Shown: positions 1 through 60,180 of the stretch, piece after piece
Layout of the letters: each line of letters begins with the position of its first letter
How positions within the stretch are numbered: the stretch's first letter is position 1
DNA from: Octopus vulgaris
Taxonomy: Eukaryota
Assembly: GCA_951406725.2 (NCBI GenBank)
Contig: OX597816.1
Location: 154,752,001 to 154,816,000, forward strand
Reading direction: 5' to 3'
DNA length: 64,000 nt
Translations under genes and position numbers: made by a program
Notes under the pieces: generated by a model
The model's input: only the letters and a program-made list of their open reading frames with translations
What the model was told of the DNA's origin: nothing
The model's database searches: none

Positions 1-224
1 ATATATACATACATATATATATATATATATACATAGACATATATGATCATGTAAATTTATGTGTATGCATGTATGTACGCATGTATGTATATATTCATGT
101 ATTTACACACACGCATATATATCCTTATATCTATGTATATATACACATATTTAGGTGTGTATGTCTATATTTATATATGCATACATACATAATACATACA
201 TACATATATATATATATGTATATG

Positions 225-350
225 ATCTTGTATGTAAGTGCATTTTTCTCTAAAACATGGTACGACTCTATAACACTGTTTCTCTCTCTCCCCCCTCTCC
301 TACATTTCTCAGCCTTTCACACTTTGCACTCCACTTTGACTCGTCTCTTT

Positions 351-382
<32 letters not shown>

Positions 383-945
383 TCTTCTCCTCCTCCTTTG
401 TTCCTTGTTCCCTTTTTCTCTCTTCCTCTGTCCCTCTTTTCTCCCCTCTCTTCTCCTCACACGTGACTAACTTTGGACTGCTGTCCTGCCTTTTCGTGGT
501 CAATGGCCGTCTAGGCTAGACACATTTCTTTCTCTCTTCGCCTCAAGGCATTTTTTCAATGCGCCAGCTCAAGTTCACCCGTCCTGTCGAAAAGACGCAT
601 GTCTGTAACGTCCTGCTTTTGTTATTATTAGTATCATTATTGTTTTTACGTATTTTCGTATTCTTATTCGTGTTATCATTATTATTTTTACGTATTTTTG
701 TATTTTTATTTGTTCCCGTCCTTGTTTTGTATACATTCGAGGCTTTCTTCCAAGGAATCTAATGCGCTTGGCTTAGATTTTCCTTTGGGGCTGGCCAGGT
801 CGGAGCAATCTCAAGATTAATCAGCCGAAATTGCAAAGATGATCCGGTTCTTGACTGATGATCGAAGGCTTCGAATGTCCCATCCGTTTTTTTGTATCGT
901 CTTCTAAATGTTTTGCGTTCTTGTCCCAGTTTGTGTTTTTTTACA
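225..945 (+). mobile_element. Non-autonomous (TA)n-flanked repeat, family A copy 1 (CT-rich leader, CACGTGAC, structured 3' RNA module)
   Basis: Homologous to 25345-25995 (-) and 47760-48020 (+); no coding capacity; bounded by TA/CA microsatellites. Confidence 0.7.
734..877 (+). ncRNA. Candidate rearranged hammerhead ribozyme (family A)
   Basis: gcaaTC|tcaaga (805-816), cagccGAAAttgc (822-834), tcttgaCTGATGA (849-861); stems I and III pair perfectly but the strand order is reversed. Confidence 0.65.
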
Positions 946-950
946 TATAC

Positions 951-13268: not shown

Positions 13269-13274
13269 GCATAT

Positions 13275-13620
13275 ATGGGTACAGGATGTCACCAACAGTA
13301 AACAACATGAAATACGAAAATAAATGCGTTCAATATGCAAACAACGAGAGAAACAATTGGAAAACGGGACAAGTAGCATAGAGAACGACTCTTCATCAGT
13401 TGTTGGCTGTCTATCTACTCCTCATTTCGAACATTAAGTGCCAATATGAGTCTTCGAACACAGTTGCCCCCATAAGTACCAAAATAAAATTTGGAATTTA
13501 TGGAAGGTCAAAGTTGGGAACAAATACAGGACAGTGGAGACATACAAGGAAACCGAACGAAAACAATCATGGAGGGTCGTTAGACCAGGACGAGGGTAAA
13601 ATAGCGAACTCTGGAGAAAT
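13275..13620 (-). mobile_element. Non-autonomous repeat, family B copy 1
   Basis: Homologous to 21560-21735 and, more distantly, to 59590-60180. Confidence 0.7.
13387..13509 (-). ncRNA. Candidate rearranged hammerhead ribozyme (family B)
   Basis: Minus strand gacctt-ccataa..ttatgg-gggca-actgt..ctcaTA|ttg..tgttcGAAAtgag..acag..caaCTGATGA-agagtc; stem I partly degenerate in this copy. Confidence 0.6.
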
Positions 13621-13810
13621 ATTTTCTTTGAAAAGAGAAAAGAATGGAGAGAGAGAGATAGGATAGTCCAATCCTTAGGACAGTCCTGAAAGAAAAGAAA
13701 GTTACTCCATTGCTTTGGCCGATGTTTTGGAAGACTACCGGTCTAAGATTCTTGTTGAGTGCAATCCCACCCCATACCATGATTCTCTTTCCTCCCCAAC
13801 ACAGTCATCG
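13620..13810 (-). mobile_element. Tc1-like transposase fragment
   Basis: MVWGGIA...PVVFQ resembles the Tc1 catalytic-domain VMVWG motif. Confidence 0.45.
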
Positions 13811-14532
13811 GCATGACGGTCACCCCTTCTTCTTCAAACCTTAGCTCTACCATCTGCCATATATATATATATATATATCCCTCTGGGCATGGTTTTGTTC
13901 TATCTTGTTTCTTAAGTGCTTTTTGCTATGAATTCCATTCTGTCTGAGTTTTGGATGTGCAAATTGTCAGTTCGTCCCCGTCTCCCTATGCCAGCAGACA
14001 CCTTTTAGATGGAATTTATAGCTGGCTTGTGCCATTTTTTCCCGTATTTATTTCTGCGGTTTTTCTTTTTAACTCTAAACTCTGTTTTATCAGTCTTTTG
14101 TTGGTTCTTTTACCTATTCTGCTGTTTTGGGAGGTGGTGTCGGGGCTGCTTTTATTATAAGCTTTCATTTTCATTCTTTTTACAGTTATTTCATCTCTGT
14201 GAACTTAAATATCCTCGTTGATGGTTGTCTTGTTTTTGCTTTCCTTACAATGGAACTGTTTTCTGTACCAGATGTTTCACATGAGAATTCATCAACTTGA
14301 GAATTCACTAATTTGAGAATTCGCCAACTTCTTATTTGCATCACAGTCAGGCAAACCCGTTGCTTTTCATGTCCGATGCAATTAGGTTGTTGGGTGAATC
14401 CTTTTCGACTACCACTCAAGTTCTGAGAAACAGTTCTATCTCGGTAACCTTCCAGTTTCTCGAGGACATTTTCACTGCACTACTTACCTTCTTCTTTGTG
14501 GTGAGTGGCTCTATGTATGATTTCTTCGTGGG

Positions 14533-19160: not shown

Positions 19161-21559
19161 GACAACACAAATAGCAACCAAATCTCCTCCAAATCGCGCT
19201 ACCGCATTCATTCCTAATCGCTGTGCTACAGACGAAGTTTGCACAGCGATTAGGAATATTTAGTGCATCGCAAAACATACTGAAATTATATTAAAAAATG
19301 TGAAAATTCGAAATAAAATTCCGAATATGAAGTCTCGTAATTATATTTCATTTACTGAATAAAAAATATAGCATTTAATAATTTTCTTTTGGCTAAAATA
19401 TTAAAAAAAATATATATATTTGCTCTAAACTATATCATAAGCTGAAAAAGTTTGTGAAAAAATTTGTACTACAGTTTAAAAAGGAAGGGGAAGAGGCATA
19501 TATAGTGAGGATAATGAAGTCTTTGATACACTTCATTTAAAACAAAGACAGGCTCACAACTTGAACACTATCGGTCATAAAGTTGCTTGATCAAGGCAGA
19601 TTAGAGAGTAAACGATATCACCACTTTGGTATTAAAGTTTGTTTTCATTTCACTAGAGGATGTAAAATGAATGTAATTTTTCAGAATTAAACAACGGTTG
19701 ATTCGGTTAATTTTGTTGTATATTATTAAAGTTGTTGCTGTTTAACCCCAGGGCATCTCTAAGCAACAGACCCATGATCAAAGTGTTCAGAACAGGTATC
19801 CAACAAAATACTATCCATTATATTCTAGCTTTTATCTCGGATTGTAAGGCATAATTTGCAAGAAATTTACCTGCTATTCCTTGTAGTTGAGTAACCTCAG
19901 AGCAATTTCTTCGTTGTGCATGGATTTATCATTTTTGTATAAAATCTAAGTAGGAATGTCTTAAGGAACCAAGCTAATATCCGTGCACTCAGCATCCTCA
20001 CCCTAGTTGCAATTCTTAGTTACAGACATTTCACTTGTGACTTTACAGACAAGGCACGAAGACCGCACCGTTTCCAGTTTAGAGAGAGAGAGAGGGAGAG
20101 AGAGATAGGTTTGTAGGTATCTGAGTCGGCAGAGGCAAACTATCAACTGAAGATTTTGTGTGTCGTGTTGTTATCGGTGCTGTATTTTGTCCACATCTAA
20201 CACGCTCAGCTATCAACAGCTGCCCAGTGTACGTAGCTATACAGAGGTATCAGTGTGACTGTACAACTTGCAACTATTATCAACATGAGTACTATATAAT
20301 GGTAAGAACAAAATATCAATGTGGAAATGATATTGATCTACTCACTCATACTTCGAGAAATTACTTCAACCGGCTTCAGGTCACCGTGATTCGAACAAAG
20401 CACTTCATTTTGCATGCATTAGTTAAACACATAGGAAAATGTGTTGGGCTGCCGCCATGTCACGCTCTGCAATCTGAAATCGTGTCTGCAAGTCAAGAAG
20501 GCATTACATGTAACGGATGTCAACAGTCTCATATAACCAAATAGATGGATTTAGACATCATTTGATGTAAAATATATTTTTTACTAAAACACAAGGGAAC
20601 TGATGTATAAGGGCAGAAAAAATAGTAATTGGTTTGTTAATAGATTTCTCACAAATATCAGTGGTGCAAGCGAGGTAAATTGGATACAGGATTATAACAC
20701 GGTTTGCAACATCGGTAAGTATGTGAGATGAAAAAATAAATTTTTTGATATTTATTCTCCAGAAATATTTATCAATAGAAGAGATTTCTACTGTTATTTT
20801 TCTAGAATATTTTGAATACATAATTTAGCTGCTACGAGTTACAGAATCAGACGAGAATGTAAAAGTATAACGAAACGTCCACTGCAGAGTTGAACTAAAG
20901 GTCAAATGGTAAACATGTTTTAGACAACAAACTATACTTAATGTGCTTAAGAAAACTTCACCGCTGCAGTATTCGTCTTGAGAGTTAAAAGACACAGATG
21001 TGGATCAGTAGGAAGAAAACCGGTGTCAAAGTGAAAGCATTATTTTGGCTTTGGCATAGAGCGACGGATACCTTCAAAACCTGTCGATTGCAACTTTGCC
21101 TTTGCTCTTTCTGGATCAATAAAATAAGGTGCCAATGAAGTACTGGTGTCGATATAATCGATCGTTCCCCACCTGCAAATGTTTGGTTTTATGCTTACAC
21201 AAGAAATTGTTACTTTGGTTTTGGCAAAGGGCGAGGGATTTCTTCAAATCAGGCCATATTATTTTGCTTTTCATTCTTCTAAGGTCGATGAAAGAAGCTC
21301 TTATTATTGATAACTTAGACCCAACTGCAAAATGTGTGATTTTGTGTCAAAGCTAGAAACCAAACCTACAAGTGATTGCAAAGGTGAACATAGGTGAACT
21401 TACATGAATTTTATTGACAAAAAGTAAAAGTCGAGAAAAGACTGGGAGAATGCAAATAAATATTTGTAAGATAAGCACAAGGGATACCATAATAGATTAT
21501 ATCGTTCCCCAGTACTGAACGGTAAAGAATATCAGAATACACATACACACACACAGTAC

Positions 21560-21735
21560 ACAACATGAAATACGAAAACAAATGAGTTCAATACGCAAAC
21601 AACGAGAGAAACAAATAGAAAACAGGACAAGTAACACAAAGAACGATCCTGTTGTCGGCTGTCCATCTACTCATTTCGAGCAATGAACGACAATATGAGA
21701 CTTCGAAGACAGTTGCTCCCATAAATACCAAAATA
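21560..21735 (-). mobile_element. Family B copy 2; rearranged-HHR module with the CUGAUGA core deleted
   Basis: Helices gagcaa/ttgctc, ctgtc/gacag, ctca/tgag and ttgtcg/cgacaa are all perfect; TGATGA is missing. Confidence 0.65.
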
Positions 21736-25351: not shown

Positions 25352-25885
25352 TAAGGTATGTAGAAAAATACAACATGGACAAGAACGTATAACTCTTAGA
25401 AGACGATACAATAAACACGGACAGGACATTCGAAACCCTCAGTCTTCAGTCAAGAACCGGATCATCGTAGTAATTTCGGCTGATTAATCTTGAGATTACT
25501 AGATCACGGCCAGCCCTCCAAGAAAAACTAAGCAACGAGCATTAGAAAAACTAAGCTGGGAGCGTAGATTTCCTGGAAGAAGGATCGAATGCATACGGAC
25601 ACCAGGACAGCAAAAGGGACGAATATAAAAAAAACAAAAAAATAATGGAATACAGAAACATGAAATACAGAAGCATTAACGGTGAAAACAACAACAAGTG
25701 TCTTACGACTGATAACAAGCAAACAAATTTTTTCTCTGGCGCAAGGAAAGGAGCCTTATCGGCGATGCCTATAGCGGCGGACGAAAAACAACGATGTTAA
25801 CACGACGCTGGTCAGAAGCTGAAAGGCAGATTTCGGCCAGCAGTCACGTGACAGAGGAGAGAGAAAAGAAAAGAAAGAGAAGCAG

Positions 25886-26800: not shown

Positions 26801-27714
26801 ACACCGGCCTCACGAAAAAATCCCACCAAAACCGAAGAAGCGTTAGCTAGTGTTAGCATATTTAATGTAAGGAGCATTAAAATGCTAATTATAAGCAGAA
26901 GTAATTATGCTGTGATGAAAAATAGTATTACTGCATGATAAATACAATAGATACTGTTTGGTGCTTTGCGCCTATATTACAAGACAATGTTATTATCTTT
27001 ATTCTGGGATATTACAGTGACAACTAGAAGCACACGAGCTATGATCTTGCCATCCATCGATAAAAAGGGGCGAGGATACCTTGGGAAAGATTGGCCTCGT
27101 CAAACTTCTTGAAAACAGTGTCTTTAGTGATGTTCATACGACCCAACTGTTTAAGGGAACTACCATGGCGATGAATATGGGACACGCAAATTCAACGGCT
27201 TCAGTGAAATTTCAGTTGGCTTTTTAAATCAAATATTTCGTTAACTCTTTCAGAAAATGCACGGATTTCATAACTTCGATTAGTTCCCCATTTTCTCCTT
27301 AAACATGAATAAAATCAATTTATCATTTAAATGTATATATATTTTTAACTCTTATATTAAATAAGTTGAATGTGGATTGAAGGAAATCTGGAATTAGATT
27401 CCTCGTTAAATTAACAGGAAGTATTTATAGTTTATTTGATATATTTAGCTTTCAAACTATCAAATGACACACCATCACACGTCCTCAAGGAATATTCATC
27501 TGTAAACGATAAAACCCATAAAATAAAACCCGTTAGTTACTATTTAAAAGCGGAAGTAAGTATCTTCTTGAATACCAGAAACTGTAACTATTTATTTAAT
27601 GTGTAAACAGATCCTCATTTAGAGTTCATTAATGTGATAAAATAGGATTGCGGATGGGCTAGTGGGTTGAGTGGTGCGGTACTAAATTGCAAAATGGAGT
27701 ATCTAGCAGTTTAG

Positions 27715-27886
27715 GAGGATGGGTTAAGTTGATTACATCGACCCCAGTACTTATTTATTTATCGACCTCGAAAGGACGAAAGGCAAAGTGGACCTCGGCG
27801 GAATTTGAATTCATAACGTAAAGACGGACGAAATGCCGCTAAGCATTTTCCCCCGGTGTCCTAATGATTTTGCCAGTTCGCCGCCT
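27715..27886 (-). mobile_element. SINE family 1
   Basis: Diverged copy of 2040-2251. Confidence 0.75.
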
Positions 27887-35190: not shown

Positions 35191-36259
35191 TTTTGCTAGA
35201 ATGGAACTGATATATCAATTCAATCTATACTCTTACAAACGCTACACCTTTAAAAAGAAATGGACTTGTTTGATTGGCCCTTTAGAAAAAACGGTCAATC
35301 TTCGAGCGATAAACAAAAAGGTCAAAAATATATGTATATATATATAAAAAACTTATAAAAATTATAAAAATTATAAAATCCGAGGAAAAAACCTATTGAC
35401 GTTAATGAAGACAGTGCAAATTAGTGCATAGAAATTAAACCTGTTATAAATACTGCAATACATATTTATATTAAAATCTACATATATATATATCAACATA
35501 CACAAAAGGATGCGCGTAAACGCCATACATACATATACAGACGTATGAATATAAATCTAAATATACACATAAAAGCATGTGTACATATATTCACGCAAAC
35601 CGTCTCGCACGCAAGCTAAAATTCATCTATGTAGCAATTCTCATATACTGAGCAAGGAGGGGGAACGAAAGAAAGGGAAAGAGAGAAAAAGGAACGAAGG
35701 AGGGGTGGGGAAAAAAACGAAATAAGAAAAAAATTATGTATACAAGTAGTGTAACGATGTTATTGGCATCTATAGAGACTAGTATACATACACAAGTTTG
35801 AATGGATACATATACATACCGTCGTGTATATGTGTGCTTAAGCACAAACATACTTTCACTTACACATACACAGATACGCATGCTTACAAATACATATGCT
35901 TTGCTATACACATACTTATATAAACATTCTAATTTTGACAACATTGCTTTTTTTAAAAAACATTGCTTTTAAAAATGGGTGCATTAATAAAAATATATAC
36001 GAAAGACATATAAAATAAAATATAACATCCTATTTTGGGTCATTTATAAATAATCAAGGTAATATAAATAATCAAGGTAATCCTATGCAATACAATAACA
36101 TGAAAACAAAGTTTGTAGGTTTTTCCTAATATATATGTAGAAACATAAGACTTTGATATACGGATTAAGATCCGCATAGCTTTGAAACAAAATCAAAATC
36201 CATCGTAGCGCTCAAGGGTCAAAATCAAAATCAAAAGTCAAAAATACAAAATATATACT

Positions 36260-36937
36260 CTATCCATATGGTATATTTATATTCGACATTTTAAATTTAG
36301 CCGCGTGCCTACATAAGTTCATTAACTCACTTCTTTGATTCAAAGAATTATTGTCTTTGAATAAGATGTACATTTTTTCTAATAGACAAAGTCTGCACTT
36401 GAAATTATTTTTGTAAGCTCCATGCCTGTATGGTGCCGCCCTGTCCAGAATGCTCCATGTCACGTTGAAAGGTGGGGCTTCCTTTTCTTTTAGTTCCCAG
36501 ACATATTTTGCTAGGCTGGTTTTCTTCCTATTCTCTGGGTATTTAAATGAATTTTTATGAGAATAAAATCTTGTTTTAAATGAATTTTCTGAAGCCCATG
36601 TGTATGTCTTGTATTCCGATGAGCCTTCCACTTGCACCTTGGCTCTATAAACTACTCCTTTCACTAGACATTTCCCTTCTAACGGACAGGAGCTTTCGTT
36701 TTTGAAATTACATTTCTTAATGGGCTCGGCACCATGTCTAATCTCAATTAGCTTCCTATTATGTTGGCTAATGTAAGAGGCGAAATTTCTGCAACAAGAA
36801 TAGCTAACCTTCAGGGTTCTTCTATTAAATATTCTGTAGAATTTATGACCCTGCTTAAAATGCTTAGAGATTAATCTCAAAAATTCCTTACCTATATTAG
36901 TCTTTACGGCCAAATTGAAAGCCGGGTTGAACCACAA
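36260..36937 (-). CDS. PLE C-terminal region with GIY-YIG endonuclease (5'-truncated, open frame)
   Basis: WFNPAFN..VKTNIGKEFL..KHF..IFNR..KVSYSC; CPLEGKCL; VVYRAKV..TYTWASENSFKTRFYSH; C..CLLEK; LNQRSEL..CRH. Confidence 0.85.
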   Translation of the reverse strand: MWFNPAFNLAVKTNIGKEFLRLISKHFKQGHKFYRIFNRRTLKVSYSCCRNFASYISQHNRKLIEIRHGAEPIKKCNFKNESSCPLEGKCLVKGVVYRAKVQVEGSSEYKTYTWASENSFKTRFYSHKNSFKYPENRKKTSLAKYVWELKEKEAPPFNVTWSILDRAAPYRHGAYKNNFKCRLCLLEKMYILFKDNNSLNQRSELMNLCRHAAKFKMSNINIPYG

Positions 36938-37963
36938 AACTTTCCTGGTCCTAGTTCTTCGTGCAGCATTATTATGATCCGTATTATTATAATCCGTATA
37001 GCAAAGTCTTATGTTTCTACATATATATTAGGAAAAACCTACAAACTTTGTTTTCATGTTATTGTATTGCATAGGATTACCTTGATTATTTATATTACCT
37101 TGATTATTTATAAATGACCCAAAATAGGATGTTATATTTTATTTTATATGTCTTTCGTATATATTTTTATTAATGCACCCATTTTTAAAAGCAATGTTTT
37201 TTAAAAAAAGCAATGTTGTCAAAATTAGAATGTTTATATAAGTATGTGTATAGCAAAGCATATGTATTTGTAAGCATGCGTATCTGTGTATGTGTAAGTG
37301 AGAGTATGTTTGTGCTTAAGCACACATATACACGACGGTATGTATATGTATCCATTCAAACTTGTGTATGTATACTGGTCTCTATAGATGCCAATAACAT
37401 CGTTACACTACTTGTATACATAATTTTTTTCTTATTTCGTTTTTTTCCCCACCCCTCCTTCGTTCCTTTTTCTCTCTTTCCCTTTCTTTCGTTCCCCCTC
37501 CTTGCTCAGTATATGAGAATTGCTACATAGATGAATTTTAGCTTGCGTGCGAGACGGTTTGCGTGAATATATGTACACATGCTTTTATGTGTATATTTAG
37601 ATTTATATTCATACGTCTGTATATGTATGTATGGCGTTTACGCGCATCCTTTTGTGTATGTTGATATATATATGTAGATTTTAATATAAATATGTATTGC
37701 AGTATTTATAACAGGTTTAATTTCTATGCACTAATTTGCACTGTCTTCATTAACGTCAATAGGTTTTTTTCCTCGGATTTTATAATTTTTATAATTTTTA
37801 TAAGTTTTTATATATATACATATATTTTTGACCTTTTTGTTTATCGCTCGAAGATTGACCGTTTTTTCTAAAGGGCCAATCAAACAAGTCCATTTCTTTT
37901 TAAAGGTGTAGCGTTTGTAAGAGTATAGATTGAATTGATATATCAGTTCCATTCTAGCAAAAA

Positions 37964-47759: not shown

Positions 47760-48015
47760 GTGTGTTTGTGTACATTCGATGCTTTCTACCAAGGAATCTA
47801 ATGCTCTTAGCTTAGTTTTTCCTTGGGGCTGGCCAGATTGGAGCAATCTCAAGATTTATCAGCCGAAATTGCGAGGATGATCTGGTTTTTGACCGAGGAT
47901 AGAAAGCTTCGAATGACCCGTCCTTGTTTTTTTGTATCTTCTATCTGGATGTTTTGTTGTCCCTTTTTGTATCACCTAGTTGTCCGGATGTTTTGCGTTC
48001 TTGTCCCATTTTGTA

Positions 48016-48020: not shown

Positions 48021-48059
<39 letters not shown>

Positions 48060-48064
<5 letters not shown>

Positions 48065-48860
48065 ACAAGATAAGGGCAAAAGAAAAATTCTAATGCCAAA
48101 TATGCCGAAACAAAAATTGTCAATAACCATTATAATTTATGTGTCCCGAAACAAACCGATAGAAATTTCTAAAAAATTCGTTATTACCGTATTGGTCCAA
48201 TTTCAGAGTTAATTCATAAGAATTTTCTCCTCTTCAGCGGCAAATACGCGAGATATAAGTGAAATACTCACTCGTACCCATGGAAAAAGCAAGCACTAAG
48301 TCCTGAGCAGACCTAAGTACCCCAAGTATATCCAAAATAGAAAATCTTCGGTACATCTCGAGACACGTGTGATTCGAACTAGAAACTTTCACAGAATGAG
48401 AGAATCCGGAAGTGAACACTATTCAATTTATAATTCTGTGAAAGTTTCTAGTTCGAATCACACGTGTTTCGAGATGTGCCGAAGATTTTCTATTTTGGAT
48501 ATATTTGGGGTACTTAGGTCTGCTCAGGACTTAGTGCTTGCTTTTTCCATGGGTACGAGTAAGTATTTCTCTTATATCTCGCGTATTTGCCGCTGAAGAG
48601 GAGAAAATTCTTATGAATTAACTCTGAAATTGGACCAATACGGTAATAACGAATTTTTTAGAAATTTCTGTCGGTTTGTTTCGGGACACATAAATTATAA
48701 TGGTTATTGACAATTTTTGTTTCGGCATATTTGGCATTAGAATTTTTCTTTTGCCCTTATCGTGTAAATTATTTATAAATTTAACCTTTAAAGGTATTTT
48801 TTGATATGCTGGCCATTGATGAAATTTTTTTCCCGAAAAAATTTTATCCTACATTATATA
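48060..48860. mobile_element. Near-perfect ~335-bp fold-back element with a type I HHR in each arm and a ~90-bp tail
   Basis: 48060-48395 is inverted to 48432-48772; HHRs at 48185-48242 (-) and 48588-48645 (+): tgccg-CTGAAGA-ggag..ctct-GAAA-ttgg-a-ccaa-TA-cggta. Confidence 0.85.
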
Positions 48861-59552: not shown

Positions 59553-59589
<37 letters not shown>

Positions 59590-59591
<2 letters not shown>

Positions 59592-60180
59592 AGTTTTGTC
59601 TTGATAATTACGATGCGCACTCTTCTTTACTATCTCTTCTCTGTCTATCTCTCTCCCTCTCTTGTTCTTCATCTTTTCTGGTTTTCTCTCCCACCCTTCC
59701 TTATTCTTCTCTCTCTTTCAACGTTCCCTCTCTCTCACTCCTCCTACTCGACTCTCTCGTCGCTGACACGTGACGAGAAGGAATCCATCTTTCTGACTAC
59801 TACCTTCGCTAAGACTAAACGGGCTTATACTGTCTCTTCACAAGTTCGTTTCCTTAAACGTTGGCTTAACAACCCCCATCGTTTGTTTTTTTATTGTTTT
59901 TACTATTTTGTTCTCACTGTCCTGTTCTTGTTACCATTTTCACCCTCCGCAAAAAATCGTAAATTTTATTTAATTTGCTTTGCGGGAAAGACTGTTTCAA
60001 TTGAAGTTGCGTCTTGTCTTCGCCTTCGACGCGTGGAGTAGTTGAAACAGGAATAACTGAATAACTCGTTTCTCTGTTTTTTTTTCGTTGTCCGAAAAAA
60101 AGTTCGTTTTTATGTTTTTGTTTCTCATTGTGTTCAACATTTTCTTGATGACCTGTACCCATATATGCATGTATATATAC
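59590..60180 (+). mobile_element. Family B copy 3 (diverged); rearranged-HHR scaffold at 59941-60065 with core deletions
   Basis: ccgcaaa/tttgcgg, gaaag/ccttc, ctgtttcaat/agttgaaacag and gcgTC/GAcgc; CT-rich leader and CACGTGAC. Confidence 0.6.

Follow-up and report, generated by a model that had tools for sequence, protein, structure and literature searches.

A hammerhead-like fold with a predicted split core in octopus repeats and in the 3' UTR of a LINE family

A family of non-coding repeats in the Octopus vulgaris genome, family B, carries a hammerhead-like RNA fold whose core is predicted to be interrupted, between A9 and G10.1, by two helices, P1 and P2. As we model it, the fold is very probably pseudoknotted, with P1 stacked on P2 outside the core, and to judge from sequence comparison it is a real, compensated RNA structure. 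Taken as a whole, the findings are best explained by a split-core self-cleaving ribozyme that would process retroelement RNA, an explanation we hold with rather more confidence than doubt; that cleavage would follow the NUH triplet is likely.

The copy that drew attention to the fold lies on the minus strand of the window, the whole 64,000-nucleotide stretch analysed (contig OX597816.1, positions 154,752,001 to 154,816,000). Its features are as follows.

13269..13701, minus strand: family B repeat copy, 5'-truncated (unit positions 252-683 of 683), ending in (TA)/(TATG) microsatellite
13504..13509, minus strand: P1 5' strand, with one change that gives a C.A mismatch here
13470..13503, minus strand: P2 hairpin, 6 bp, adjoining P1 and stem II with zero spacer
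13465..13469, minus strand: stem II 5' strand, G10.1 first, moved upstream of the cleavage block
13459..13463, minus strand: P3 5' strand, counterpart of the stem I-II interaction helix of type SGC (PMC10085705)
13439..13450, minus strand: block S, consisting of the stem III 3' strand, the AUA triplet and the stem I 5' strand
13421..13433, minus strand: block G, consisting of the stem II 3' strand, GAAA and the stem III 5' strand
13407..13411, minus strand: P3 3' strand
13393..13405, minus strand: stem I 3' strand and CUGAUGA (block C minus its stem II strand)
13387..13392, minus strand: P1 3' strand; the same strand is stem II in the rival canonical type-SGC fold

A sequence-only reading had named the P1, P2, stem and core strands of this copy, and on the minus strand all of them can be found between 13509 and 13387; in plus-strand numbering the AUA triplet ends at 13445, as it had claimed, and the cut predicted by analogy would fall between 13445 and 13444, after AUA. 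The copy itself is a decayed, damaged member of its family: it is 93.3% identical to the family B consensus, its stem I has three pairs compared with the 6 bp of the consensus (in which the core is intact), stem II contains two G.U pairs, P3 carries one change in addition to the mismatch in P1, and neither the strand-order descriptor nor the parser described below matched it. We also note that a fragment at 13702-13830 (-) with a VMVWGGI-type motif, which we take to be Tc1/mariner-like transposase, adjoins the truncated 5' end.

The family B unit is 683 nt long, non-coding and flanked by (TA)n, and is one of three non-coding units (683 nt for B, and 672 and 707 nt) found as tandem or monomeric copies in families A-C. 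A search of the 2.8 Gb genome (227 contigs) gave 5,795 first-look candidates for family B, of which 40 were scored, at 87-90% identity with the window copy excluded, and 3,278 candidates for family C; five B sites in 850 kb outside the window extrapolate, roughly, to some 16,000 copies. Family B occurs mostly as monomers and partial tandems in (TA)n, and the 3' end of another unit lies upstream of 5 of the 12 B copies that reach the unit start, with corresponding counts of 3/9 for C and 11/18 for A. The ordered core CUGANGA/GAAA/NUH is retained in 16 of 29 other family B copies. Non-CpG divergence among B copies is 0.048 inside the motif and 0.051 in the flanks, and since genomic copies thus diverge equally inside and outside the motif, selection would act on the source elements.

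Several further features of these units were seen along the way. In the B and C consensuses, the interval between P3 and stem III (window 13451-13456 and 13415-13420) has a conserved GAA opposite AGUA, an arrangement that presumably resembles a loop E or sarcin-ricin motif; CGAAG and GAGTAG were both found in 22/29 family B copies. The family B consensus also contains, 72 nt upstream of P1, a longer (9 bp) second partner for the P1 3' strand that could compete with P1. GTAAGT splice-donor-like sites occur near the start of the B and C units, a feature also of PLE terminal repeats, and in two other repeat families of the window a splice donor immediately precedes CUGANGA; the sites seen include window 48540-48560 (+) and ~59040 (-).

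Five more copies of these families lie in the window, where a general repeat search was dominated by microsatellites.

21553..21735, minus strand: second family B copy, 5'-truncated, with TGATGA deleted
59588..60168, plus strand: family C copy, homologous to B, with GAAA and CUGANGA both damaged
223..946, plus strand: family A copy that shares the fold and has its core intact
25358..25546, minus strand: A-group (A2) copy with an intact core
47765..47970, plus strand: family A 3' fragment

The sequence at 21645-21735 had been described as a B copy with perfect helices that has lost TGATGA, and stems I-III as well as P3 are indeed intact there, the copy being 5'-truncated inside P2. The sequence at 59941-60065 had likewise been assigned to family B with different paired sequences; its named P2, P3 and stem III strands are present and both core motifs are damaged, but it belongs to the separate family C, and because C aligns to B at 73% it is not 'unalignable'. 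Families A and B gave zero blastn matches to each other. The larger claim, that a topology kept across unalignable sequence is the strongest evidence of selection in the window, is supported with two corrections: the third copy comes from another, alignable family, and selection is placed on source elements and not on genomic copies. Near-perfect long inverted repeats with CUGANGA in each arm were also observed at window positions 35191-37962 (684 nt, 100%) and 48047-48783 (351 nt, 97%).

Consensuses built from 30 copies each of A, B and C all have an intact hammerhead core (CUGANGA, GAAA, NUH) and follow one order: P1, P2 hairpin, stem II 5' strand, P3, III-NUH-I, II-GAAA-III, P3', I-CUGANGA and P1'. 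That B shares the strand order of A, as had been proposed, is borne out by the P1-P2-II upstream arrangement carried by both consensuses, and the sequences of stem II differ throughout (GAGCA/UGCUC in B, GAAGG/CCUUC in C and GGCUG/CAGCC in A). The block order, S (cleavage), G (GAAA), C (CUGANGA), is non-circular, and a stem I-II interaction helix is present. Hammerhead stems I, II and III flank the core with covariation in the family set; types I-III are circular permutations with a three-way junction and no pseudoknot, and the S-G-C order places the fold outside them. Rfam gave no ribozyme match on 13300-13600, nor on four loci at gathering score, and over the whole window by E-value only microsatellite-driven matches appeared among the 150 of 264 matches listed.

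One structural descriptor of the strand order, written without P1 or P2, retrieves further families well above shuffled sequence, so passing a check that the sequence-only reading had proposed: there were 10 matches in 1,114,000 bases (2 of them in the window), compared with 5 in 20 shuffles pooled, or 0-1 in each. The families uncovered in this way are D, E, G, A2, F and H, together with a Naiad-like end. Twelve families from the octopus genome and metagenome contigs parse to an identical strand order (A3 and L302, like the window copy, did not parse, and L308 was omitted from the count as a near-duplicate). Watson-Crick pairs across the twelve amount to 59/60 in stem II, 35/36 in stem III, 60/60 in stem I, 43/48 in P1 and 48/55 in P2, compared with a pairing of 0.24-0.48 when strands are swapped across families, percentages that are partly circular because stems I-III were required by the search and registers were optimised; G10.1-C11.1 is kept in 12/12.

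The placement of P1 and P2 next to stem II was not demanded by the descriptor, and we regard the shuffle test of it as less circular. Of 500 shuffles, the observed P1+P2 score was reached by 0 for B, L301 and L307, 1 for E, 3 for L306 and for L308, 5 for D and for F, 8 for C and 21 for A; P1+P2 was not above chance in A2 (416/500) or L309 (44/500), and the upstream stem II strand on its own was weak compared with shuffles (5-394/500). P1 is wholly different between hosts (CCCU/AGGG, GGGG/CCCC, UGGAGA/UCUCCA and GUGAGGAA/UUCCUCAC). Family G (L197; C11 block 14369 and 15022), a 653-nt tandem, has no P2, and its split fold is closed by P1 only. A small conserved hairpin, UCCG..CGGAG, lies downstream of CUGANGA in the group with RLE proteins (L301, L302, L304-L306, L308, L309 and family F) and is absent from A, B and C; it is a candidate protein-binding signal.

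Family F (2,490 candidates in the genome search, the best 40 at 99-100% identity) places the fold in a protein-coding element. The element is 3,738 nt long with a single ORF of ~1,110 aa in the layout ZnF-RT-RLE, intact ORFs occur, and the 3' UTR carries the fold 117 nt before the end. The ORF matches RVT_1 (Pfam) at E 5.7e-19, its best PDB matches are R2 proteins, narrowly before L1, and a C-terminal PD-(D/E)xK nuclease (RLE) and zinc motifs can be read by eye. By these features family F is a young RLE-clade (R2-group) LINE, which we assume to carry the HERO clade label. Nine metagenome loci have ORFs homologous to that of family F; a single assembly supplied five of them and one contig stops too soon, and the motif was seen by eye in eight, two of them with a damaged GAAA, while 5 of the 6 loci put through the parser pass. 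Boxes A and B resembling those of tRNAs were noticed by eye in the part of the LINE 3' UTR that precedes the ribozyme, at L303:1230-1322 and L307:1650-1730; ARAGORN found no tRNA in L301-309.

The likely hosts of the non-coding families are approached through their target and layout. Naiad_Ovul targets (TA)n and is annotated 'HHR_half_core' in PMC8557442, and the published 3' ends of Naiad_Ovul and Naiad_Obim given there have the same strand order when read by eye, with GACAC/GUGUC as stem II, a P2, and a P1 that is short at 3 pairs. An old family related to Naiad ends, with the fold, was found in the octopus genome, and zero blastn matches link it to family B. No ORF was linked to any A-E copy in the sampled DNA, and low-stringency tblastn with one PLE query gave no Naiad ORF there, so that the mobiliser of B is inferred from target and layout only. 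We give an even chance to the idea that a Penelope-like element with a (TA)n target, probably a Naiad, mobilises family B in trans. Two PLE groups were considered as parents of B and rejected: one with a C-terminal endonuclease (L271-300), which has a minimal classic-order hammerhead, and another (L319-332), in which the hammerhead is a variant of classic order and which is not similar to A-E. Both groups, L271-L300 and L319-L332, are abundant young PLE families (19,626 and 11,507 candidates) with deviant cores, UUGAAAA, and CCGAAGA with UGAAA.

The fold sits near the 3' end of the element. In the mechanism that we favour, read-through transcripts would be cut by the ribozyme to unit-length RNAs, each unit-length RNA would be circularised by ligation, and the retroelement enzyme, primed internally at the AU-rich junction, could reverse transcribe past one round. 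The parts most specific to this scheme, in which RtcB or another host ligase closes the circle and priming starts internally at the (AU)n junction, stand in our judgment slightly above an even chance. A circular template for more-than-unit copies has been proposed for PLEs (PMC4209133), and circular RNAs have been demonstrated for animal type I retrozymes (PMC7229834).

Family F offers the clearest view of such copies. Among 24 long loci (two overlap one site and one is without F), all seven sites that reach unit position 1 run into a second unit, and 6/7 cross the upstream cut site while 0 stop there, leaving no defined 5' end. Copies that span the upstream cut site require templates intact across it. 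Minor alleles are common to both units at L315 (11/11 of those of the upstream unit) and at L316 (4/6), and the second units with their shared rare alleles argue against independent second insertions; as the other five pairs share 0-1 minor alleles, this argument rests on L315 and L316. These more-than-unit copies fit a cleaved and re-ligated circular template. Among unselected copies of the non-coding families, 5' ends within 2 nt of the cut site show no clear peak (B 2/13, A 0/18, C 0/9). One record of a sequence run (run X1, record 1) is a 1,283-nt contig with overlapping ends that spans the cut site and the unit junction (compared with L221:4700-5400), which suggests an internally deleted family F derivative of ~1.25 kb; it could be a circle or a tandem, from a run guessed to be RNA, and therefore carries little weight.

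The main rival to the circle accepts the fold and supposes that cleavage is slow, regulated or serves just to trim a promoter-bearing 5' end, with an uncleaved multimer transcribed from tandem source copies as the template. [quoted passage not shown] However, two conserved ribozymes would have to remain uncut on one 4-6 kb RNA, and all seven unit-length F copies exceed one unit, none with a defined 5' end.

A second alternative concerns the split itself. In 9 of the 13 parsed sequences (A, A2, G, F, L301 and L306-L309) none of the bases that follow CUGANGA pairs with the 3' strand of stem II, whether 0 or 1 inserted base is allowed, and in B, C, D and E a canonical stem II can be formed if an A bulges out (4 pairs, two being wobbles). 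The active fold of families B-E might be an ordinary type SGC, in which the bulged A follows A9 and a stem II rich in G.U pairs comes immediately downstream, and with P1 and the upstream strand forming an alternative, possibly inhibitory, conformation; we think this improbable. Each of the 11 copies that have letters at this place makes 4/4 pairs in its stem II, one two-sided change being seen among them, and PLE hammerheads conserve a base between positions 9 and 10.1 (PMC4209133). Among 13 natural B, C and E copies this downstream stem II is 100% paired, again with one two-sided change, compared with 93.1% for P1, P2 and upstream stem II, in which 5 pairs have changed on both sides and slid registers give 38-54%. 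Against the canonical arrangement, two of its four pairs are wobbles, the upstream strand makes five Watson-Crick pairs with three two-sided changes, and the downstream stem II has no pairs at all in the nine sequences above. These collective observations make the split well supported across the class, whereas for B it is no more than the preferred option. The split fold would work like a type-SGC hammerhead, yet given block C it would be premature to class it as SGC. That the motif is instead a conserved RNA signal without catalysis, for example one bound by a protein, or that it arose in repeats by chance, is very improbable, for although Rfam gave no ribozyme match and genomic copies decay neutrally, CUGANGA, GAAA, NUH and G10.1-C11.1 stay constant across unalignable hosts while every helix changes, and the descriptor found 10 matches against 0-1 per shuffle.

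The closest known relative of the split-core fold is the type-SGC hammerhead (HRIMA-1 and variants; Eckert et al. 2023, PMC10085705), which is known only from metatranscriptomes, outside the genomes of known organisms. The two are alike in the order S, G, C, in a full core with a short stem I-II link, and in an extra helix that joins the far ends of stems I and II. They differ in that the stem II 5' strand lies upstream in the split fold, where P1, with or without P2, closes the A9/G10.1 break, and in that the hosts are animal retroelements; Eckert et al. also assume CUGAnGA to be inseparable from its stem II strand. Animal non-LTR retrozymes (Cervera and de la Pena 2020, PMC7229834; Li et al. 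2026, 10.64898/2026.07.22.740005) are, like family B, tandem or monomeric non-coding repeats, a few hundred bases long, that bear hammerheads, and an origin in PLE terminal repeats has been proposed for them. They are defined by type I hammerheads, unlike the octopus families, and their circles are demonstrated, whereas ours are predicted. Naiad elements (Craig et al. 2021, PMC8557442) share with family B the (TA)n target and the strand order at their ends, and that paper reports them to be without canonical hammerheads; family B, by contrast, has no blastn similarity to the Naiad-end family and no ORF, so that Naiad parentage is a candidate. R2-group LINEs with HDV-like 5' ribozymes (PMC6765202 and PMC7650587) resemble family F in combining RLE proteins with a self-cleaving motif, predicted in F, and family F differs from them in having a hammerhead, in the 3' UTR, and copies of more than one unit.

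Our literature search, with thin coverage of subscription journals and supplementary variant alignments, returned no paper on this topology or on a hammerhead in HERO elements, and within it the term 'type-SGC' occurred only in the original paper. The split fold would be missed by all three descriptor types of the cited surveys. The broadest reading would make it a seventh natural hammerhead architecture, its core opened at A9/G10.1 into a four- or five-helix junction and serving, throughout animals, as a common processing ribozyme of Naiad PLEs, HERO-like LINEs and the non-autonomous satellites of both, with the LINEs moving via circular RNA and having no fixed 5' end; we place this slightly short of an even chance. 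If true, it would break the assumption under the six-permutation hammerhead scheme, move non-circular permutations from environmental RNA to tens of thousands of animal genome copies, and explain the 'half-core' Naiads described as lacking ribozymes. Family F, as a young LINE with intact ORFs and best copies 99-100% identical, would provide a direct system for the origin of PLE-like partial tandems. We also observed, in the L111-L115 block at ~27,500-27,750 (+), a hammerhead-like sequence in type II order whose stem III contains a long insertion; it follows a PLE fragment at a distance of ~1 kb downstream.
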